Origin: a virus
Lineage: Duplodnaviria > Caudoviricetes
Strand: one strand, 5' to 3'
Length of the DNA: 64,000 nucleotides
IMG/VR virus record: IMGVR_UViG_3300031965_000014
Coordinates: 6,786 to 70,785 of that record
The position numbers were made by a program, and so were the translations under genes. Of this stretch, positions 11,151-21,469 are shown one piece after another (position 1 is the first letter of the stretch; each line of letters begins with the position of its first letter). The notes beneath the pieces were generated by a model, which worked only from the letters and a program-made list of their open reading frames with translations, did not search any database and was not told the DNA's origin.

Positions 11151-13198
11151 ACGCGCTCCAGGGATTTGACCGTCTCGCCGAGCACCACACGATGGACGAC
11201 GACGTTACCAGCGAGCCCTATCTCGACCGTATCCACCTTGTAGCCGTCTTTCAAACGAAACGGCTTCTTGAGGTTCGTGATGTTCCTGCTGAAGCGGAGC
11301 TTGCGGTCTGCAAACAGCGTGAAGGTCAATTGCTGCAGGCCAGCGGTCGACGGCGCCGTCTGCAGCAAACTCCCATTCAAGACCATCTCATTGAGAACGA
11401 CGCTGTGCATGTCGCCATTCGTCTCCCCGGCCGGGATCGCGCTATTCGCGGCGATGATCGAAGCGGCGAGCGCCTCGATCTCCGCTACCTCGCCCGCGCT
11501 CAGGTCGAACTCCGCATCGACCTTCGCCGCGCCGTAGTTGGCTGGCTTTGGCAACACGATCACCTTGGAGCGGTAGTCCATGATGAGACGGATGGCCATA
11601 TCCGCGTCCCACTGTTTGATCTCGTTGCCGTGCAGAACGTAGAGATCTCCGGTCCGCTTGTCGTAATACCCGCCCACGATCGGGATGTTGGAGGTGGCAA
11701 GGCCGCCAATGTTGTTCTCGCGATCGAGGAGGAACGTACCGCCGACATCATTCCCATCGTCATCCTGGCCGGAAGTGAACGCACCGAAGTAGCGATCGGC
11801 GAACTGAAACGCGCGTAGCGTGGACGGGAAGATCGCCGCCCAAGTGTCGCGATCATGGTAGGGGACAGTCGCAACGGTCGTGCCGCCTTCGCTCACCATC
11901 ACGAGGCCCTCGGCCGACGGATAGAACACTGCGTATCCGAGGCTCACCATGCCGCGCTTCGAGAGGCACGGATGATTGATCTTGGTCAGTTTGTTCTCGG
12001 CCATCGTGGCTGGGTGCGACCCGGAATAGACGACCGGGTTGCCATTGGTGCCGATCACGAGGCTCGCGCCCACGACGCCAGTCCCGACACCTGAAAACGG
12101 CATCGTGCGGCGATACTTCTCTGGCCAGGCGTGCGTGAAATAGGGCTCGCTGAAACACACTTCGTTGCTCGAGACCCCGGCGAGGATGCCGTTGCCCATG
12201 TCGACGATGGCCTTCATATCGATAGGCGGCATGTCCCAATCGAGGCTGGGAATCGCCTCGTTCAGCGCAACCGCTGCATCGGTCTCGGTGTCGGCGTAGG
12301 TCGTATCCACCTCATCTATTTCGGCGACGAAGCGATAAAACGCTCCGGCGTTGCCGATGACGGTGCGGTAGATCCGCTTCTTGAGAACGTCGTGGTTCGT
12401 CTTCGCGGTGATGGTCCCGGTCGCAGGCGAGGCCGGCGTGCCGCTCACCGTGTAGCTGAACTGCGTATCGGAGATCCGCGTGATCTCGAACGTGCCGTTG
12501 TATTCGGTCTCGACTGCTCCTGCGATGATGACGCGGTCTTTGTCGGTAAACCAGTTCACATAGCCGGCCGGAATCGTCACCGTCGCTACTGCCCCTACCC
12601 GGGTGATCGACGAGACCGGCACCACCCAGCGCGGGATACTGGTGAGATTGATCGTCTCCCCGGACATCGCGGAGATGATGGCCGAAGGCGTGGACGGCGC
12701 GCTCTCGTCAGTCTTGCCGCTCGCCCAGGCGTGGACGAAAGTCACAAGGTAGACGCGATCGCGCGCCGTGCCGGATCCTCCGCCGCCAGAAGCCAGGCTC
12801 GGTGCGGTGATCGGCGCAGGCACGCCCAGGCGCCACCAGTCCGTGGGCTTCGGAGTCCCGCCAGTGGCGAGTGTGAAATCGGTGGTCTTCGGCGAGCCGT
12901 AGCCGGTGAAGCAAATCCGCTGCGTGATGTCGCCGGCGATCAGGGACTCGACCACGTCTACGTCCTCGACCCATTCCAGCCACACGAGGGCCCCACCGCT
13001 GTCGCGCATCGGGTAGATCGACTGCACCGTGCCGCTCTTCGCCAGGCCGGATGCCGTCTTCATCCCAAACCACGGTTTCAGCTTCCCGTCGAAGAGCTTG
13101 CAGTTGAACGCCTGCTGCGCGTACCCGGCCGGCAGCAGGCGAGGGCTGAACTTCGGCGCCTCGCCGCGGAAGAAGTCCAGGACGATCGGGTCGGCCAT
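11147..13198 (-). CDS. Tail nozzle / DNA-stabilisation-like protein (683 aa)
   Basis: True start is MADPIVLDFFRGEAP at 13198 (TGATG overlap with the upstream gene). Beta-rich; contains CFSEPY..HAWP; position fits a podovirus tail gene. Confidence 0.7.
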   Translation of the reverse strand: MADPIVLDFFRGEAPKFSPRLLPAGYAQQAFNCKLFDGKLKPWFGMKTASGLAKSGTVQSIYPMRDSGGALVWLEWVEDVDVVESLIAGDITQRICFTGYGSPKTTDFTLATGGTPKPTDWWRLGVPAPITAPSLASGGGGSGTARDRVYLVTFVHAWASGKTDESAPSTPSAIISAMSGETINLTSIPRWVVPVSSITRVGAVATVTIPAGYVNWFTDKDRVIIAGAVETEYNGTFEITRISDTQFSYTVSGTPASPATGTITAKTNHDVLKKRIYRTVIGNAGAFYRFVAEIDEVDTTYADTETDAAVALNEAIPSLDWDMPPIDMKAIVDMGNGILAGVSSNEVCFSEPYFTHAWPEKYRRTMPFSGVGTGVVGASLVIGTNGNPVVYSGSHPATMAENKLTKINHPCLSKRGMVSLGYAVFYPSAEGLVMVSEGGTTVATVPYHDRDTWAAIFPSTLRAFQFADRYFGAFTSGQDDDGNDVGGTFLLDRENNIGGLATSNIPIVGGYYDKRTGDLYVLHGNEIKQWDADMAIRLIMDYRSKVIVLPKPANYGAAKVDAEFDLSAGEVAEIEALAASIIAANSAIPAGETNGDMHSVVLNEMVLNGSLLQTAPSTAGLQQLTFTLFADRKLRFSRNITNLKKPFRLKDGYKVDTVEIGLAGNVVVHRVVLGETVKSLERV

Positions 13199-13425
13199 CA
13201 GGGTGCCAGCGCCTTCAATTCCGCTGCCAGGGCGATCGTGCGCTCCGCATCCGCGATCCTGTTGTCCAACATCTTCTTCATCGCCGCCGGGATGTCTTCG
13301 GGCGCCGTGACCTCGATCAAGGGGGCGAGCTCGGTGTCGATGATGTTGGTGCGGTGGGCATTGAGGATGGTGTACTGCACCGCCCCGCGAACGATTTCCA
13401 GAATGAGGGCTTTCTCGAGGCTCAT
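13198..13425 (-). CDS. Hypothetical protein (75 aa)
   Basis: Coupled at both ends; normal codon usage. Confidence 0.6.
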   Translation of the reverse strand: MSLEKALILEIVRGAVQYTILNAHRTNIIDTELAPLIEVTAPEDIPAAMKKMLDNRIADAERTIALAAELKALAP

Positions 13426-13820
13426 GGCTTGGCTTTCCTTTCGCTCTCTGCCAGCTCGTTCTCGAGCAGGTTGAGTAGCAGTTCAACCGCTTTGGCTTGA
13501 TTCTCGGCCTTGGCGATGTCGCCCAGGTCGAGCGCCGTCTGCGCCTTGGCGATGGCGTCCCTGTGCTCCTTCACCTTGATCAGCTTCAGCGCGGCCTCCT
13601 TGGGTGTGATGACGTCGCGATTCATCTTCGACACGATGTCGTCCACCATGGCCAAGGCGAGCAGCGTCGCCTCATTGATGACGTTCTGCACTTGCTGGGC
13701 TGGCGCCGAGAGCTGCTTGGAGACCGGGATCTCGGCTGGCTTGGGCTGCATGATGCCGCAGCCGCCCAGCGCCATGCTTGCGCACAGCGCCAGGGCGGTA
13801 AGTAGTTTGGAGGCTTTCAT
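13422..13820 (-). CDS. Lipoprotein in the lysis cassette (spanin-like role possible)
   Basis: MKASKLLTALALCASMALGGC lipobox, followed by amphipathic helices. Confidence 0.7.
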   Translation of the reverse strand: MKASKLLTALALCASMALGGCGIMQPKPAEIPVSKQLSAPAQQVQNVINEATLLALAMVDDIVSKMNRDVITPKEAALKLIKVKEHRDAIAKAQTALDLGDIAKAENQAKAVELLLNLLENELAESERKAKP

Positions 13821-13830
13821 GTGCCCTCCG

Positions 13831-13998
13831 CTACTTCACCGAGCTCACGCCAGCACGCAGCGTGGCCAGTCCAAGCCCTTCCAGCGAACGCACCACGGTA
13901 TCGGCCAGAGACAGCTCGCCGGTCAGGAATGCGACTACGGCGCTGACCACTACACCAACAGCGACGACGTACGTTTTCTTGCCAGATAGAAATTGCAT
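13831..13998 (-). CDS. Small holin-like membrane protein (55 aa)
   Basis: Below the ORF-track size. AAGGAGG SD; MQFLSGKKTYVVAVGVVVSAVVAFLTGELSLADTVVRSLEGLGLATLRAGVSSVK; next to the endolysin. Confidence 0.65.
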   Translation of the reverse strand: MQFLSGKKTYVVAVGVVVSAVVAFLTGELSLADTVVRSLEGLGLATLRAGVSSVK

Positions 13999-14014
13999 GA
14001 CTACCTCCTTGTAG

Positions 14015-14446
14015 CTATGGATAGAACGTGCGCTTGCCGGAGCCAGGCGCGCGCGTGGTCAGGTGCGTCCAACCCGGCGTTGCGGTCGGGTGCTCCCTGT
14101 AAAGACCGTACTGCTCGAGCTTCGTGTTTCCGCCATCGCCGACCTCGAACTTGTCGAGCCAATTGTCCAGCCGGTCCTTGGGGTCGAAAGGATCGACACC
14201 AGTCGCTCCACGATGACTCGAAAGTTTGCCGCCCGTACGGGAACCTGGCGTGCGAAAGCCGCCATCGCCGTCGCCACCATTCTTGCCGCTGATCTCGGTC
14301 CCGGTGTCCGGGTCGATCTCGCGCTCGAACTCGCCGGCTGTCACGGCTTCGTCGATCAGGGCATTGGAGCGCCGGATCAGATCCTCGGCGGCCGCCGACT
14401 GTTCGGGGCTGTGCGGCTTGCGGAAATAGTCCTCGCTTGACATCAT
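14015..14446 (-). CDS. Endolysin, peptidase M15-type (Zn D,L-peptidase)
   Basis: GGFR..SSHRGATGVD (SxH..D) and PGWTHL Zn-ligand motifs; ends RTFYP. Confidence 0.75.
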   Translation of the reverse strand: MMSSEDYFRKPHSPEQSAAAEDLIRRSNALIDEAVTAGEFEREIDPDTGTEISGKNGGDGDGGFRTPGSRTGGKLSSHRGATGVDPFDPKDRLDNWLDKFEVGDGGNTKLEQYGLYREHPTATPGWTHLTTRAPGSGKRTFYP

Positions 14447-14448
14447 CT

Positions 14449-14733
14449 TTACTTACCTCTCTGCACTTTGCGCATGTTCTCGAGACGGCCACGGAGATAG
14501 TTCAGGTGGTTGATCTCCGCAGCGGTCAAATTCTCCTTTCGCTCGAGCGCCGCGATCTGCGCGACCAGATCCTCCATCTGCTTGTCGAGCAGGTAGTCCA
14601 CCTGGGCGCCGACCAGCAGGATCTCCTGCTTGCTGGCGAAGTTATCTGCCAAGTAGCCGCGCGCGTGCCAGCCGCCAAACGCGAGCCCGGCGACCAGAAG
14701 GGACAGCAGCCCGGTGAGTAACTTGCTAATCAT
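14449..14733 (-). CDS. Single-TM coiled-coil protein (lysis-associated)
   Basis: N-terminal hydrophobic helix plus coiled coil; adjacent to the endolysin. Confidence 0.6.
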   Translation of the reverse strand: MISKLLTGLLSLLVAGLAFGGWHARGYLADNFASKQEILLVGAQVDYLLDKQMEDLVAQIAALERKENLTAAEINHLNYLRGRLENMRKVQRGK

Positions 14734-14735
14734 GG

Positions 14736-15149
14736 TCAGCCTCCTTTGCTCTGCTGGGACATCTGCCGCACCGCCTCGACGCGCTTTTCAACTTCGTCCC
14801 GCGTCGGGCGTTTGCCCAGCTCGGTCAAGAGCGACGTGTGGATGCCGTGCAGCGTGGTGGTCTGCTCCTTGAGCGCGCCGAGTACCTCGTGGTGCATATC
14901 GACATCACGCTGGATGTGACCGTTGAGATCCGCGTACACGCCCCTGATGTCCTCGCGGCGGTGGTCCTCGGCCTGCGCCGCTGCTTCAGCGGCCGCGCGC
15001 GCGTGCTCGTGCGCCATGTTGATGCGCTTGCTGAGGCCGCTGTAGACCTGCCTGCTCAGCCAGCCAAGCACCACGAGGATGCCAGCAGCCACGGAGCCGA
15101 CGAATCCGCTGTGCTGCTCGGCTGATTTCAGGAGGGCGATGATGTCCAT
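14736..15149 (-). CDS. Single-TM protein (holin/antiholin-like)
   Basis: One TM segment (residues ~14-32) followed by a charged helix. Confidence 0.55.
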   Translation of the reverse strand: MDIIALLKSAEQHSGFVGSVAAGILVVLGWLSRQVYSGLSKRINMAHEHARAAAEAAAQAEDHRREDIRGVYADLNGHIQRDVDMHHEVLGALKEQTTTLHGIHTSLLTELGKRPTRDEVEKRVEAVRQMSQQSKGG

Positions 15150-15197
15150 TTAGGCTGTACCGCCGTTCATCAGTTAGTCACCGTTGGCGATGAGGGC

Positions 15198-15225
15198 TTG
15201 CCATTCCCGGTGATCGGCGTATGTT
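15198..15225 (+). promoter_or_regulatory. Candidate sigma70 promoter of the antisense moron
   Basis: TTGCCA-N16-TATGTT, ending 8 nt before the ATG at 15234; no SD, so possibly leaderless. Confidence 0.4.
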
Positions 15226-15233
15226 CCTGTGGC

Positions 15234-15542
15234 ATGAGGCTAGTTATCATGCTGTCCTTGATCGTTTCTGGCTGCGCGTCCGCACCGTATTGGGAACGCA
15301 CATGGGAAGGCGCACTCACCACGAGAATCATCTACGTCGACGTGATCGCGGGCAGCGGGGATTGGGGCCACGTCAACGGTTGGGCGTCGTGCGACAAGAT
15401 CAAGCGTCATTGCGACCTGTTCATCTACTCCGGCGCACAGAATCGGCAATGCACCGAAGCGCATGAGCGGAAACACGCGGCCGGATTCGATCATCCGAAG
15501 CATCGCGCCAGTCTAGATTGCGTGTTCATGCGGGCTTTCTAG
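15234..15542 (+). CDS. Antisense moron: small lipoprotein with metzincin motif (102 aa)
   Basis: MRLVIMLSLIVSGC lipobox; HERKHAAGFDH matches HExxHxxGxxH; the only convincing + strand gene in the late arm. Confidence 0.65.
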   Translation: MRLVIMLSLIVSGCASAPYWERTWEGALTTRIIYVDVIAGSGDWGHVNGWASCDKIKRHCDLFIYSGAQNRQCTEAHERKHAAGFDHPKHRASLDCVFMRAF

Positions 15543-16372
15543 TCGCTCGGGCTCGTCGAGGCAGCGTCGAGCGTGCCGGTGATCGTCCAAGGCCCCCCGC
15601 CAGTACCTCGATTGATTGCAAAGTTCGCTACTGCCTCTCCGTCGTTCAAATGATGGTAGATGAGCGGCGCAGTTCCAGTTGGCGACGCTCCAGTTGTTCC
15701 TAGACCTACAGGCTTACCAATCGCAGAGATGAATCTGCGACGATTGGCGACGACGGAGAAATCTAGGTATTGGCCAGGAGCGAAATAAAACTCAGCCAGA
15801 CAGCCATTTATCCTATTGAAAGTGGGCGGGAAAACTCCTATCCACCAGTCACCAACCGTGTAATCTATCGTGTCGTTTGTCAGTGTAGTGACCGTGAGAT
15901 CACTGGCATCATTCGTATAAAGATGCGCAGCGGCAGCAGCTAAATCCCACGAGCACAAGAAATGCCACCATGTTGCGCCCGATGAGTAACTGGCTGTACT
16001 GGTAATGTCGAGGATATTGGTGGCAGAGGTATTCCGAGCGACTACTCGTATAGGAGAAGAACCTCCCCAATTGGCGAAGAACCTCACCGTGCCGCCACCT
16101 AAGGTTGTCTCTCCGTTAATGAAATTGCCAACCTGATTGGCATCAAAACGAACCCAAAACGACAGGATTCCGGTTTTACTGTCTAACGCGCCTGTTAAAC
16201 CAGCGCCGAGTCGCATGTTGTCGTTGAAGCCGTCGAAGTCGGCAGCATCTATCTTGAACGGGGTCTTCATAAACCCCATCGGCGTGAAGAACCCGCGCTG
16301 CTTGAACCACGAGCGCGGCATGCTTCTACTGCGCGGCGGCGTCCAGAGCTTGCGGTCAGGCTTCAGGATCAT
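15539..16372 (-). CDS. ConA/LamG-like lectin-domain tail-associated protein (277 aa), low-GC body
   Basis: Start MILKPDRKLWTPP overlaps the upstream stop. AADFDG..SFWVRF..WWHFLCSWD..NGCLAEFYF is a LamG-like pattern. Confidence 0.65.
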   Translation of the reverse strand: MILKPDRKLWTPPRSRSMPRSWFKQRGFFTPMGFMKTPFKIDAADFDGFNDNMRLGAGLTGALDSKTGILSFWVRFDANQVGNFINGETTLGGGTVRFFANWGGSSPIRVVARNTSATNILDITSTASYSSGATWWHFLCSWDLAAAAAHLYTNDASDLTVTTLTNDTIDYTVGDWWIGVFPPTFNRINGCLAEFYFAPGQYLDFSVVANRRRFISAIGKPVGLGTTGASPTGTAPLIYHHLNDGEAVANFAINRGTGGGPWTITGTLDAASTSPSD

Positions 16373-17283
16373 TGGAGGGCCTGCACTTGGAGCAAGGAGC
16401 CCGCGGCGCCGATGCTGATGTGACACCTGAACTTGTGGCCGTTCGTAGTGGTGAAGGCATCGCCGGTGACGAAGGTAAAGCCGCTCGTCGTGATCGCCCC
16501 GGCAGAGGCGTTGTTCGTGATGTCGAGGAGGTAGCTTCCTACGTTGGCCGAGGGCGCCAGCGTGTGCGCCCCGCCGTTGACGTAGTGCTGCATCGGTCGG
16601 TCGCCCGGGTCCGGCGTCACGGTGCCGGTGGTCTTCGTACCGAGATCCTTCGAGGTCACGATGACGCCGCCGCTCAAGACCTGATCCTCGGTATCCAGGC
16701 TTGCATTGTTCGGCACGTTGAGCAAGATCATGTCGGTGCCGTCGTAGTGGAGTATTCCGATGATGCCGGCCTTGATCTCTCCCGCGGTGAGCGCGCCACC
16801 ACCTAATTTCTTGATCGTCTTTGCGCCATAGCTGTTCAGATTCAGCGTAGGAGCGGAGACCGTGTTCGCGTTCGGGAACTTGAAGAAGTAGATTTGATCC
16901 GTGTTGTAGCCGTTCGGCACCGGGTCGAGGTTGCCGGTGTAGGTGTCCGTGCCAGAGCCGATGACCGCGTCAATGGCCTCCTGGTCGATCGCCTCAAGCA
17001 TGACGTTGCACGGGCGCAGCTCGAACCGATCACCAGCGCTGTAGGCGAGCCCCGTGGTGCCGTCCTGGCCGCGCACCGCCGTCAGCACGTCCCCGGAGAG
17101 CGCCGTCACCTTCACCACCTCGAGGTTGTTCGAGGCATCGGCGAGCGTCCCGTAGAAGTAGTCGGACGCGCCCAGCGTCGGGAAGCGTGCGCCGTGCGTC
17201 GCGGTCAGCGTGATCGAGGTCTGGCTGTTCGTGATCCCGGAGGCGAGCGTCCCGGCCGCGTTGTTCTTCGTCTTCAGTCCCAT
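16369..17283 (-). CDS. Tail fibre/tail protein
   Basis: N-terminal NNAAGTLASGITNSQTSITL..EVVKVT..RGQDGT, typical of podovirus fibre N-termini; G/T-rich beta repeats. Confidence 0.7.
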   Translation of the reverse strand: MGLKTKNNAAGTLASGITNSQTSITLTATHGARFPTLGASDYFYGTLADASNNLEVVKVTALSGDVLTAVRGQDGTTGLAYSAGDRFELRPCNVMLEAIDQEAIDAVIGSGTDTYTGNLDPVPNGYNTDQIYFFKFPNANTVSAPTLNLNSYGAKTIKKLGGGALTAGEIKAGIIGILHYDGTDMILLNVPNNASLDTEDQVLSGGVIVTSKDLGTKTTGTVTPDPGDRPMQHYVNGGAHTLAPSANVGSYLLDITNNASAGAITTSGFTFVTGDAFTTTNGHKFRCHISIGAAGSLLQVQALQ

Positions 17284-17293
17284 TGCGTTCTCC

Positions 17294-18022
17294 TTACGAG
17301 ATCGTCAGCGTCCAGGTGATCGTCATGGAATCGGCCGCACCCTTGTTGACCACCGAGAACGTCGACCGATTCGTCATGACGTCCTGGTAGAGCGTCAGCG
17401 TGCCGTTCGCACCTACCGCAGTGGTGTAGAAGGTGAAGGTGTCGGCGGTCGGCACGGTCTGGATCGTCGCCCCGCCGTTCAGGCCGGTGTCGGTCGCCGC
17501 GGCGATGCCGATCGCGCGGTCAACCGCCAGGCCGTGCGTGGTCTTCGTGACCGTCACCGTGTTGGTGGACCTGGTGTACGCCAGGCCGGCGGCGGCCGCG
17601 GCGGTGCCGTTGAAGAGGCCGGCCTCCACCAGAGCGCCGGTGCCAACGCCTGCGGGGAAGGTGCAGACGTAGATGGCCTCGTTGTTGCGCACCGTGGTCG
17701 AGGCGAGGGCCGTTCGGCTGGACCCCACTTCGGCGATAAGCGCTGCCTGCGCGGCGGCCGCCGCGCTGCCGTCGGTGCCAACCGCCATGTGAGTCGGGGC
17801 CGCGGTCGCCACCCCCTTGAGGCGCGAGGCAATTGTGCTCTTGCCGGAATTGACGACCAGGTTCTCGAATTCCCGGCGATCCTTCAGTTTGCCGCGCGGA
17901 TCGAACAGGTCGATGCGCACGTGGCCCCTGATATTGAACGCATCTCGAATGCCGCCCGGGATCTGGCCGAGAGGCACCATGAGGCCCTGTTTGTTTTCGA
18001 TGAATGCGTGGCGTTCGATCAT
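17294..18022 (-). CDS. Virion structural (tail) protein
   Basis: ENLVVNSG..HMAVGT..EAGLFN..VNKGAADSMTITWTL, with an inserted beta domain. Confidence 0.65.
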   Translation of the reverse strand: MIERHAFIENKQGLMVPLGQIPGGIRDAFNIRGHVRIDLFDPRGKLKDRREFENLVVNSGKSTIASRLKGVATAAPTHMAVGTDGSAAAAAQAALIAEVGSSRTALASTTVRNNEAIYVCTFPAGVGTGALVEAGLFNGTAAAAAGLAYTRSTNTVTVTKTTHGLAVDRAIGIAAATDTGLNGGATIQTVPTADTFTFYTTAVGANGTLTLYQDVMTNRSTFSVVNKGAADSMTITWTLTIS

Positions 18023-21047: not shown

Positions 21048-21437
21048 TTAGTACACGTTCTTGTAATGTCCGTTTTGAAATGTCACTAGGCGATGGCAGT
21101 TCGCACACAGAGTTTCGAAATTCTCTTGAGCATTGTTTTTACGGTTGCCATCCTTGTGATTTATATCTAGTTGACCAATGATTTGCGGAACAAAACCACA
21201 TCGTTCGCAAGAATTCTTCTTGAATCTCCTATCTCGTCTCTTCTTCTTCCAGCTACCCGGCCTTTTAGCCTTCCAGCCTTTGCTGCACCTCCAACCATGG
21301 CCGACAAAAAGCTCGCCTTTGTGCTTCTTGTAAGCATTCGACCTAATGCTGACTGGTCCACAGTGGGCACAAACTGCTCTACGATTTTCTTCATCAATCG
21401 CGCTCAATCTATGAACCCTATGAACCAACTGAGTCAT
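21048..21437 (-). mobile_element. Free-standing HNH endonuclease gene 1 (low GC)
   Basis: CERCG..DINHKDGNRKNN..LCANCH; visibly AT-rich against the GC-rich flanks; likely start is the ATG at 21437. Confidence 0.8.
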
Positions 21438-21444
21438 TGAAATT

Positions 21445-21469
21445 GGGTGGCCCTTATTAGGGGCCACCC
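21445..21469 (-). terminator. 9-bp perfect hairpin after the capsid gene cluster (terminator or translational control of the HNH gene)
   Basis: GGGTGGCCC / 7-nt loop / GGGCCACCC; only a weak U-tract follows. Confidence 0.45.

Follow-up and report, generated by a model that had tools for sequence, protein, structure and literature searches.

The window analysed here, 64,000 nt in length, is part of a 70,785-bp IMG/VR phage record judged to be 95% complete. Its late genes are located on the - strand and encode small and large terminase, portal, major head protein, and virion proteins, and in addition a tail-fibre N-terminal domain, an internal virion protein, and a giant DarB-like protein; a replication initiator is also present in the record. 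On the + strand, an ORF was found which closes at TAG 15540-15542 and could open at TTG 15198, GTG 15210, or ATG 15234. A preliminary description of this DNA had called it the only convincing + strand gene in 38 kb of late genes, and a non-exhaustive look at the ORF lists agrees. In the alignment, all close homologues open with Met-Arg matching ATG 15234, and DNA similarity to L002, the nearest long contig, sets in at 15228. Therefore, 15234-15542 (+ strand, stop included) was taken as the gene, which specifies a precursor of 102 aa and is referred to here as the mini-zincin gene. TTG 15198 and GTG 15210 were discarded as starts, since the homologues and the DNA homology set in at the ATG region. 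The gene is flanked by a lysis-like cassette (13422-15149, - strand) and by a convergent gene for a LamG/pentraxin-fold protein (15539-16282, - strand). The stops of the two convergent genes share the sequence CTAG at 15539-15542, so that the overlap noted earlier is indeed present.

Relatives of the mini-zincin are encoded at twelve metagenome loci, and eight metagenome proteins with 51-91% identity were obtained. Compared to the three closest homologous loci, codon position 3 holds 20 of 29, 31 of 44, and 34 of 53 differences, and the ratios of synonymous to non-synonymous codon changes for the same loci are 21:5, 27:11, and 27:15. Purifying selection has acted on the frame from ATG 15234 to TAG 15542, which is a real gene. 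An antisense ORF (15240-15503) was also considered, but the substitution pattern tracks the + frame and the ORF was ruled out as a true gene.

The N-terminus of the product has the order of a standard lipoprotein signal, MR followed by the hydrophobic stretch LVIMLSLI and by V-S-G-C14, residues 11-14 being the lipobox (15264-15275). A basic n-region, a hydrophobic core, and a lipobox of the type [LVI][ASTVI][GAS]C in the first ~35 residues, by which bacterial lipoprotein signals are recognised, are all present. The predicted signal peptide of 13 aa together with the predicted lipid-modified Cys14 occupies 15234-15275 on the + strand, leaving a mature chain of 89 aa. Four further cysteines are found in this chain, C53, C60, C73, and C96, with codons at 15390, 15411, 15450, and 15519 (+ strand, span 15390-15521). 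Thus, the lipobox, the four additional cysteines, and the mature chain of about 89 aa mentioned in the preliminary description were all recovered. In an alignment of 77 family members, the lipid-modified Cys is present in 68, Gly at position -1 in 61, and Ala at +2 in 51. By the rule established for E. coli, Ala at +2 fits sorting to the outer membrane, and the protein is probably destined for its inner leaflet. Conservation of the other cysteines differs: C73 is found in 65/77, C96 in 67/77, and C60 in 49/77 members, C53 is variable, and in another subgroup of the family a different pair of cysteines occurs instead, at positions 40 and 50. C73 and C96, which flank the zinc motif, probably form a disulfide. 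Twelve of the 77 members have no signal peptide, and nine of these fall inside the clade that holds the protein from the window (SH-aLRT 98 in a quick, unrooted tree).

The predicted zinc-binding and catalytic motif, H77-E78-x-x-H81-x-x-G84-x-x-H87, reads HERKHAAGFDH and is encoded at 15462-15494 (+ strand); it is an exact HExxHxxGxxH, as had been stated before. When 1.84 billion cluster representatives were searched with a profile, 88 proteins (50%-identity clusters) were obtained at E <= 0.001. Family members are nearly all about 90-125 aa long, the full H-E-x-x-H-x-x-G-x-x-H motif is contained in 86 of 94 retrieved proteins, and most of them possess a lipobox. At a mean column identity of only 21% among the 77 aligned members, H77, E78, H81, G84, and H87 are invariant columns; W20 is conserved in 76 and Y19 in 71 of the sequences. 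Lack of motif conservation among homologues had been named beforehand as a finding that would speak against the original proposal. As the motif is kept in 77/77 members, the proposal is not refuted on this point.

No family for this protein exists in Pfam, PHROGs, or NCBIfam, and a few members show weak matches to DUF6782, Peptidase_M10 (M10), or Astacin in Pfam. Neighbours in the ESM Atlas belong to unnamed clusters from bacteria and viruses, and the best-matching proteins in BFVD come from uncultured phages and are uncharacterised as well. Tblastn searches of 50,697 GenBank phage records gave no match. In 185,579 species genomes, one genome each, no relative was detected apart from one motif-only stretch in Streptomyces, and a search of IMG/VR with family patterns yielded one relative (L016) and one motif-only stretch. 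Fused or longer forms were not found, which is weak evidence, and no paper on such a mini-zincin family was found in the literature. The mini-zincins are a previously undescribed, fairly widespread phage protein family that is not named in current libraries.

When the family profile was compared to the PDB, the best match was an astacin-type hatching enzyme (3vtg, E 1.6e-4), followed by weaker matches to other astacins, meprin, and ADAM8 (E 0.005-0.035) and also to ADAMTS5 and snapalysin. The match is not restricted to the motif, but covers in addition the strand region ahead of the helix. Structure prediction had been suggested as a check in the preliminary description; AlphaFold2 (AF2) with the family alignment produced a model with a pLDDT of 87.6. 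The model contains strands at residues 29-35, 49-54, and 59-65, a short helix at 42-46, and the active-site helix at 71-82, followed by only ~20 residues without regular structure. Foldseek against the PDB gave nothing at E <= 0.001. Exhaustive alignment against 48,161 chains retrieved weak matches (Z <= 4.3), and almost all among the matches listed are zincins. The highest scores were obtained with YbeY (Z 4.3, 3.9, and 3.7), MMP-12 (3.8), and SprT/Spartan (Spartan, 3.7), and lower ones with archaemetzincins, ADAMTS, ADAM, minigluzincins (Z 2.9-3.3), and snapalysin.

Designation of the protein as a metzincin, as proposed originally, could be upheld only in part. The motif is shared with astacins (M12A), adamalysins (M12B), and matrixins (M10), and the predicted sheet-plus-helix core superposes weakly on MMP, ADAMTS, ADAM, and snapalysin. 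A Met-turn downstream of the third His is not conserved, however: the window protein has Met99, but 24/77 members show a gap in this column, and Met is no common residue there. The two-lobed fold of the metzincins (clan MA(M)) with a five-stranded sheet, helices A and B, and a C-terminal lobe with helix C is not seen in the AF2 model. Many members even end right after C96, and P0215, a distant relative from L024, ends one residue past the third His. Since the motif and the sheet-helix core are present, but no conserved Met-turn and no lower lobe, the protein was filed as a mini-zincin with a metzincin motif. It is a zincin-like core with a metzincin-type third ligand and not a proven member of any known metzincin family. 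In contrast to metzincins, its mature chain comprises 89 aa (~76-86 in some relatives), there is no backing helix, and a lipid anchor is predicted. Snapalysin, the smallest solved metzincin, is larger (132 aa).

Two other groups of proteins are instructive for comparison. The minigluzincins proabylysin, projannalysin, and selecase (104-109 aa) are likewise minimal zincin domains standing alone, although the mini-zincin is smaller still. They are soluble archaeal proteins with a Glu on a separate helix as the third ligand, whereas in the phage lipoprotein the third ligand is a His three residues past the Gly turn. The endoribonuclease YbeY (UPF0054), which gave the best structural scores, has the metal motif H-x3-H-x2-G-Y-D-H, ending in G-aromatic-D-H as does that of the mini-zincin, but without the Glu. 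YbeY is cytoplasmic and acts on RNA, while in the mini-zincin family no member has lost the Glu and most are predicted to be exported. That the top structural match is an RNase nevertheless argues against reading the protein as a peptidase. Furthermore, the Met-turn and the lower lobe, which shape the S1' pocket in metzincins, are missing, and peptidase activity is therefore not assured. An ImmA/IrrE-type repressor protease was ruled out, as the protein is a predicted exported lipoprotein.

The metal might also only hold the fold, and the protein would then act stoichiometrically as a zinc-stabilised binding module that blocks, for instance, a receptor or some protein of the periplasm. The absence of the parts completing the metzincin cleft and the very small, disulfide-rich domain are compatible with such a function, and the known exclusion lipoproteins, T5 Llp and Cor, act by binding. 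On the other hand, the general-base Glu is as invariant as the three His (77/77), a purely structural site would not need it, and catalytically dead zincin homologues usually lose it. A non-catalytic module is accordingly regarded as distinctly unlikely, and a zinc site with a catalytic function is preferred in the following.

How the gene might be expressed was addressed by inspecting the region around its start. A -35-like hexamer, TTGCCA (15198-15203, + strand), and a -10-like hexamer, TATGTT (15220-15225, + strand), are separated by 16 nt and match the consensus in 9/12 positions, with the ATG 8 nt downstream. The candidate promoter is thus present exactly as described before, as one consensus match. 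It is the sole sigma-70-like site on both strands within 13000-17500, a count equal to the expectation from shuffled sequences (1.0). Since sites are no more frequent than in shuffles, only the position ahead of the ATG is informative; a rough estimate from site density gives a chance of about 1 in 1000 that a match falls in the correct 10-nt window. A TTGAC-like hexamer is also found ~35-36 nt ahead of the ATG in L002, L003, and L005, although the scanner flags the site of the window alone; the counterpart in L002 has 8/12 matches, which is below flagging. No Shine-Dalgarno sequence is present in 15226-15233. As the -10-like site is located 8 nt from the ATG and a Shine-Dalgarno sequence is missing, the mRNA may be leaderless or nearly so. 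The scan of 13000-17500 revealed no terminator-like site 3' of the gene.

A tyrosine integrase (PF00589, 47 bits, 398-aa frame) is encoded just outside the window, upstream of its first base, near the beginning of the record (G000:C1:1393-1866). By this gene the phage is temperate, and expression of the mini-zincin in lysogens is possible. The mini-zincin gene had been interpreted as a moron. Its inversion relative to the late genes, its GC3 of 0.71, its presence or absence beside the same neighbour (see below), and the integrase are in line with this interpretation.

Among the genes of the window, only the LamG gene is kept beside the mini-zincin gene in other loci. Its ORF is open to 16426, but homologues align only from ~16282 down, about residue 50, and the annotated start at 16426 is therefore probably too far upstream. 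The family is very large and consists of proteins of ~250 aa with 50-60% identity; PF13385 was detected on most of 513+ homologues. The AF2 model resembles agrin/laminin LG and pentraxin folds (E 5e-7) with a jelly roll, and in several loci the gene comes after fibre genes. The protein is probably a fibre-end or receptor-binding protein. Homologues with 50-60% identity adjoin the mini-zincin gene in convergent orientation in L002, L003, L004, L005, L007, and L008, and in tandem in L010, L011, and L012. Altogether, adjacency was observed at 10 of 14 loci (9/13 plus L024, in which the mini-zincin is divergent in sequence).

Comparison at the nucleotide level revealed a shared unit. Similarity to L002, L003, and L005 is limited to 15228-16249, that is, to the two genes, and often extends as one alignment over the convergent junction. 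The cassette is the only DNA common to the window phage and otherwise unrelated phage contigs. GC3 is 0.54 for the LamG gene and 0.71 for the mini-zincin gene, while 0.76-0.90 was determined for the other late genes examined. Judged by composition and similarity, the two genes are a foreign cassette transferred between phages, and the LamG gene looks like a recently imported fibre-end module. The association is not strict. Sixteen of 17 viral loci with a LamG homologue are devoid of a mini-zincin gene, and L001, L006, and L016 harbor a mini-zincin gene without a LamG gene, in L006 after an HTH regulator. Mini-zincin is therefore considered an optional gene that usually rides with the gene of a fibre-end lectin. 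To L001, similarity is restricted to 15267-15543, the mini-zincin gene alone, and stops at the ends of the gene. The L001 copy (88% identical, GC3 0.75) faces an unrelated gene (1019-1579, - strand) in convergent orientation. The product of that gene starts with a twin-arginine-like signal and continues with a lipobox, and GC3 of the neighbours is 0.40; here the mini-zincin gene apparently moved alone.

Such a gene pair, strongly adjacent and transferred together, could be explained if the mini-zincin were a chaperone or a processing protease needed for maturation or assembly of the neighbouring LamG fibre protein. In L010-L012 the tandem arrangement of a fibre gene and a small gene indeed resembles fibre/chaperone pairs, and these versions have no signal peptide. 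Most members, including that of the window, are exported lipoproteins, however, and fibres assemble in the cytoplasm. In addition, hundreds of LamG homologues (50-60% identity) face a handful of mini-zincin genes, and each gene occurs without the other at the loci given above. A role in fibre maturation is for these reasons very unlikely. Complex prediction with the mature domain, the LamG protein, and zinc gave a score of 0.00, which speaks neither for nor against binding.

The second flank of the mini-zincin gene is formed by the lysis-like cassette, which was recognised by sequence features, as no significant Pfam or PHROG match was obtained. It encodes two coiled-coil proteins of 137 and 94 aa with N-terminal TM segments, a LAS-peptidase-like protein of 143 aa, a TM protein of 55 aa, and a lipoprotein of 132 aa. 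The 143-aa protein (14015-14446, - strand) has no Pfam or PHROG match either, but shows by eye the pattern S-x-H-x6-D ... W-x-H, as is usual in peptidoglycan peptidases of the LAS/M15 type; it is probably the endolysin, from a divergent family. The 132-aa lipoprotein (13422-13820, - strand), with the lipobox LGG|C and a long helical mature part, could be an unusual outer-membrane spanin, and it has no similarity to the lipoprotein of 133 aa encoded at the same position in L029. Different modules are found elsewhere: in L012 (2271-2699) and L005 (8526-8957) members of the same holin family (phrog_3427, E about 1e-28) are paired with small peptidases of the M15/Hedgehog type, a compact arrangement unlike that of the window.

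Proximity to these genes leads to the main rival explanation, according to which the mini-zincin is a lysis accessory. Anchored at or released to the interface of outer membrane and peptidoglycan, it would cut a tether or an envelope protein late in infection and thereby aid endolysin and spanins. Lysis-type genes adjoin the mini-zincin gene in the window, L005/L004, L009, L010, L012, and L024; they specify the holin phrog_3427, M15/Hedgehog-type (LAS) peptidases, a GH24-like lysozyme, and TM coiled-coil proteins for which weak Rz-like matches were obtained. Forms without signal peptide are co-oriented and tightly packed with lysis genes: in L010 and L012 they follow the LamG gene in tandem and precede genes for TM proteins, endolysin, and holin, and L009, of which the upstream flank is missing, has the same downstream layout. 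In L005, moreover, the mini-zincin is the sole convincing lipoprotein near the cassette. A precedent is also available in Listeria, which is made more sensitive to phage lysis by a phage-derived metzincin that has a lipoprotein as its partner (PMC8235301). Against this stands the inverted orientation relative to late or lysis genes in the window, L002, L003, L005, L007, and L008. The adjoining lysis genes are not homologous across loci, but the LamG gene is; the other flank in L002 is a head-closure-like gene; in L006 an HTH regulator precedes the mini-zincin; and the cassette of the window already contains its own lipoprotein. Considering both sides, a lysis accessory appears rather unlikely.

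If the mini-zincin itself were an unusual outer-membrane spanin subunit, it would pair with one of the adjacent TM coiled-coil proteins. A lipoprotein gene beside genes for candidate inner-membrane spanin-type proteins fits this arrangement, and weak matches to Rz-like and T7 o-spanin models were noticed at the level of the signal peptide. The PHROG Rz-like match, however, covers the signal peptide only (residues 14-30, E 0.062), the gene for such a subunit is expected inside, overlapping, or behind the inner-membrane spanin gene on the same strand but the gene of the window lies on the opposite one, the model predicts a compact folded zinc domain instead of a short proline-rich chain, and relatives without a lipobox exist. 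Taken alongside the fibre chaperone or processing role, which is unlikely as well, a spanin is the least probable of the functions considered and highly improbable.

Small outer-membrane lipoproteins encoded by accessory genes are well known from other phages. T5 Llp, Cor of T1, phi80, and N15, and Bor of lambda are specified by genes beside tail-fibre or lysis genes, and such genes are often oriented against the late operon. Lambda bor, for instance, is antisense and located beside the lysis genes, and T5 llp adjoins the gene for the receptor-binding protein pb5. In the same way as llp travels with pb5, the mini-zincin gene travels with the gene for a putative receptor-binding LamG protein, a linkage seen in the 10 of 14 loci. 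By this analogy, the association with a fibre-end gene makes a receptor-directed role more plausible. Llp, Cor, and Bor differ in that they contain no catalytic motif and act by binding; a sequence relationship to the mini-zincin was not seen with Pfam, PHROG, and NCBIfam, which gave no match for the latter.

From these data it appeared possible to outline a function. The molecular part is well supported by the sequence features: an exported, lipid-anchored mini-zincin bearing a zinc site, with a Glu as constrained as the ligands. The protein would be exported and lipidated at Cys14 and would probably end up in the outer membrane, on its inner leaflet, with almost no tether between the lipid anchor and the folded domain. 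The 89-aa domain may be viewed as a radically reduced zincin with a three-stranded sheet, the H-E-x-x-H helix, the Gly turn, and the third His, in which the near-invariant N-terminal P-Y-W and the probable C73-C96 disulfide would stand in for the Met-turn and the C-terminal lobe. Most likely one zinc ion is bound, and a peptide bond of an envelope component near the outer membrane would be hydrolysed. The gene is envisaged as an accessory gene of a temperate phage, inverted in the late operon, read from its own promoter, probably into a leaderless mRNA, and moving between phages as a cassette with the gene for a LamG-fold fibre end. The LamG cassette, the inversion combined with the promoter-like site, the temperate lifestyle, and the scant tether suggest an accessory function that is directed at the envelope and linked to the receptor or the entry route of the phage.

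As for substrate and exclusion, which we infer from analogy, the leading role would be to disable the receptor or entry route used by the LamG fibre protein. Lysogens or infected cells might thereby be shielded from superinfection, and progeny from debris, so that the mini-zincin would achieve by catalysis what receptor-blocking lipoproteins such as T5 Llp achieve by binding. For the overall explanation, a lipid-anchored zinc hydrolase of the envelope encoded by a LamG-linked accessory gene, with receptor-directed exclusion as its leading role, a probability of roughly 0.45 is suggested, slightly below even odds. Several observations speak against parts of it. For an enzyme located in the periplasm, the surface loops of a receptor are out of reach. 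The signal-less forms of L010 and L012, placed in tandem between LamG and lysis genes, need extra assumptions if exclusion is the only function, and most LamG genes have no such partner (16/17 viral loci). The two genes could also be adjacent because both were inserted at one hot spot, where fibre and lysis genes meet. Doubtful is a more far-reaching version, in which the protein would be the smallest self-contained metzincin-type protease known so far (~76-89 mature residues), with P-Y-W and the disulfide replacing the Met-turn and the lower lobe, and a catalytic, receptor-destroying exclusion factor exchanged together with its cognate LamG protein.

An enzyme to which the mini-zincin can be likened by description only is Mtz, a secreted phage-derived metzincin of a Gram-positive host, Listeria, which has the TIMP-like lipoprotein Tim as partner (PMC8235301). 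In both cases a phage-associated protein with a metzincin motif would act on the envelope, and Mtz/Tim influences phage lysis; the lipoprotein is the partner of the enzyme in Listeria, but the enzyme itself in the phage described here.

If the mini-zincin is active, the minimal active site of the metzincin type would have to be redefined as one without Met-turn or lower lobe, and a very small disulfide-pinned scaffold would be available for structural and engineering work. With such activity, the few envelope-directed accessory lipoproteins of phages, which to our knowledge act by binding, would be joined by one that works as an enzyme. Cassettes of a fibre lectin and a lipoprotein enzyme could then serve as a handle to predict receptor/exclusion pairs in uncultured phages. 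An inactive mini-zincin would still represent a new, fairly widespread phage protein family.

Two further observations concern genes outside the cassette. In the window, an ORF for 139 aa (21048-21467, - strand) lies in a stretch of low GC content (0.56) between virion genes; Cys pairs and an H-N-H-like pattern were seen by eye, and it possibly specifies a homing-type HNH endonuclease. In L005 (9604-9993, + strand), and also in L004, the conserved upstream region is separated from the mini-zincin gene by an inserted gene. The product, 129 aa long, carries a cleavable signal peptide, ends in an aromatic residue, and by eye resembles outer-membrane proteins. It begins with MAVVKWGMR, a sequence seen again as the N-terminal extension of P0002, which suggests a duplication or an insertion at the start of the mini-zincin gene.
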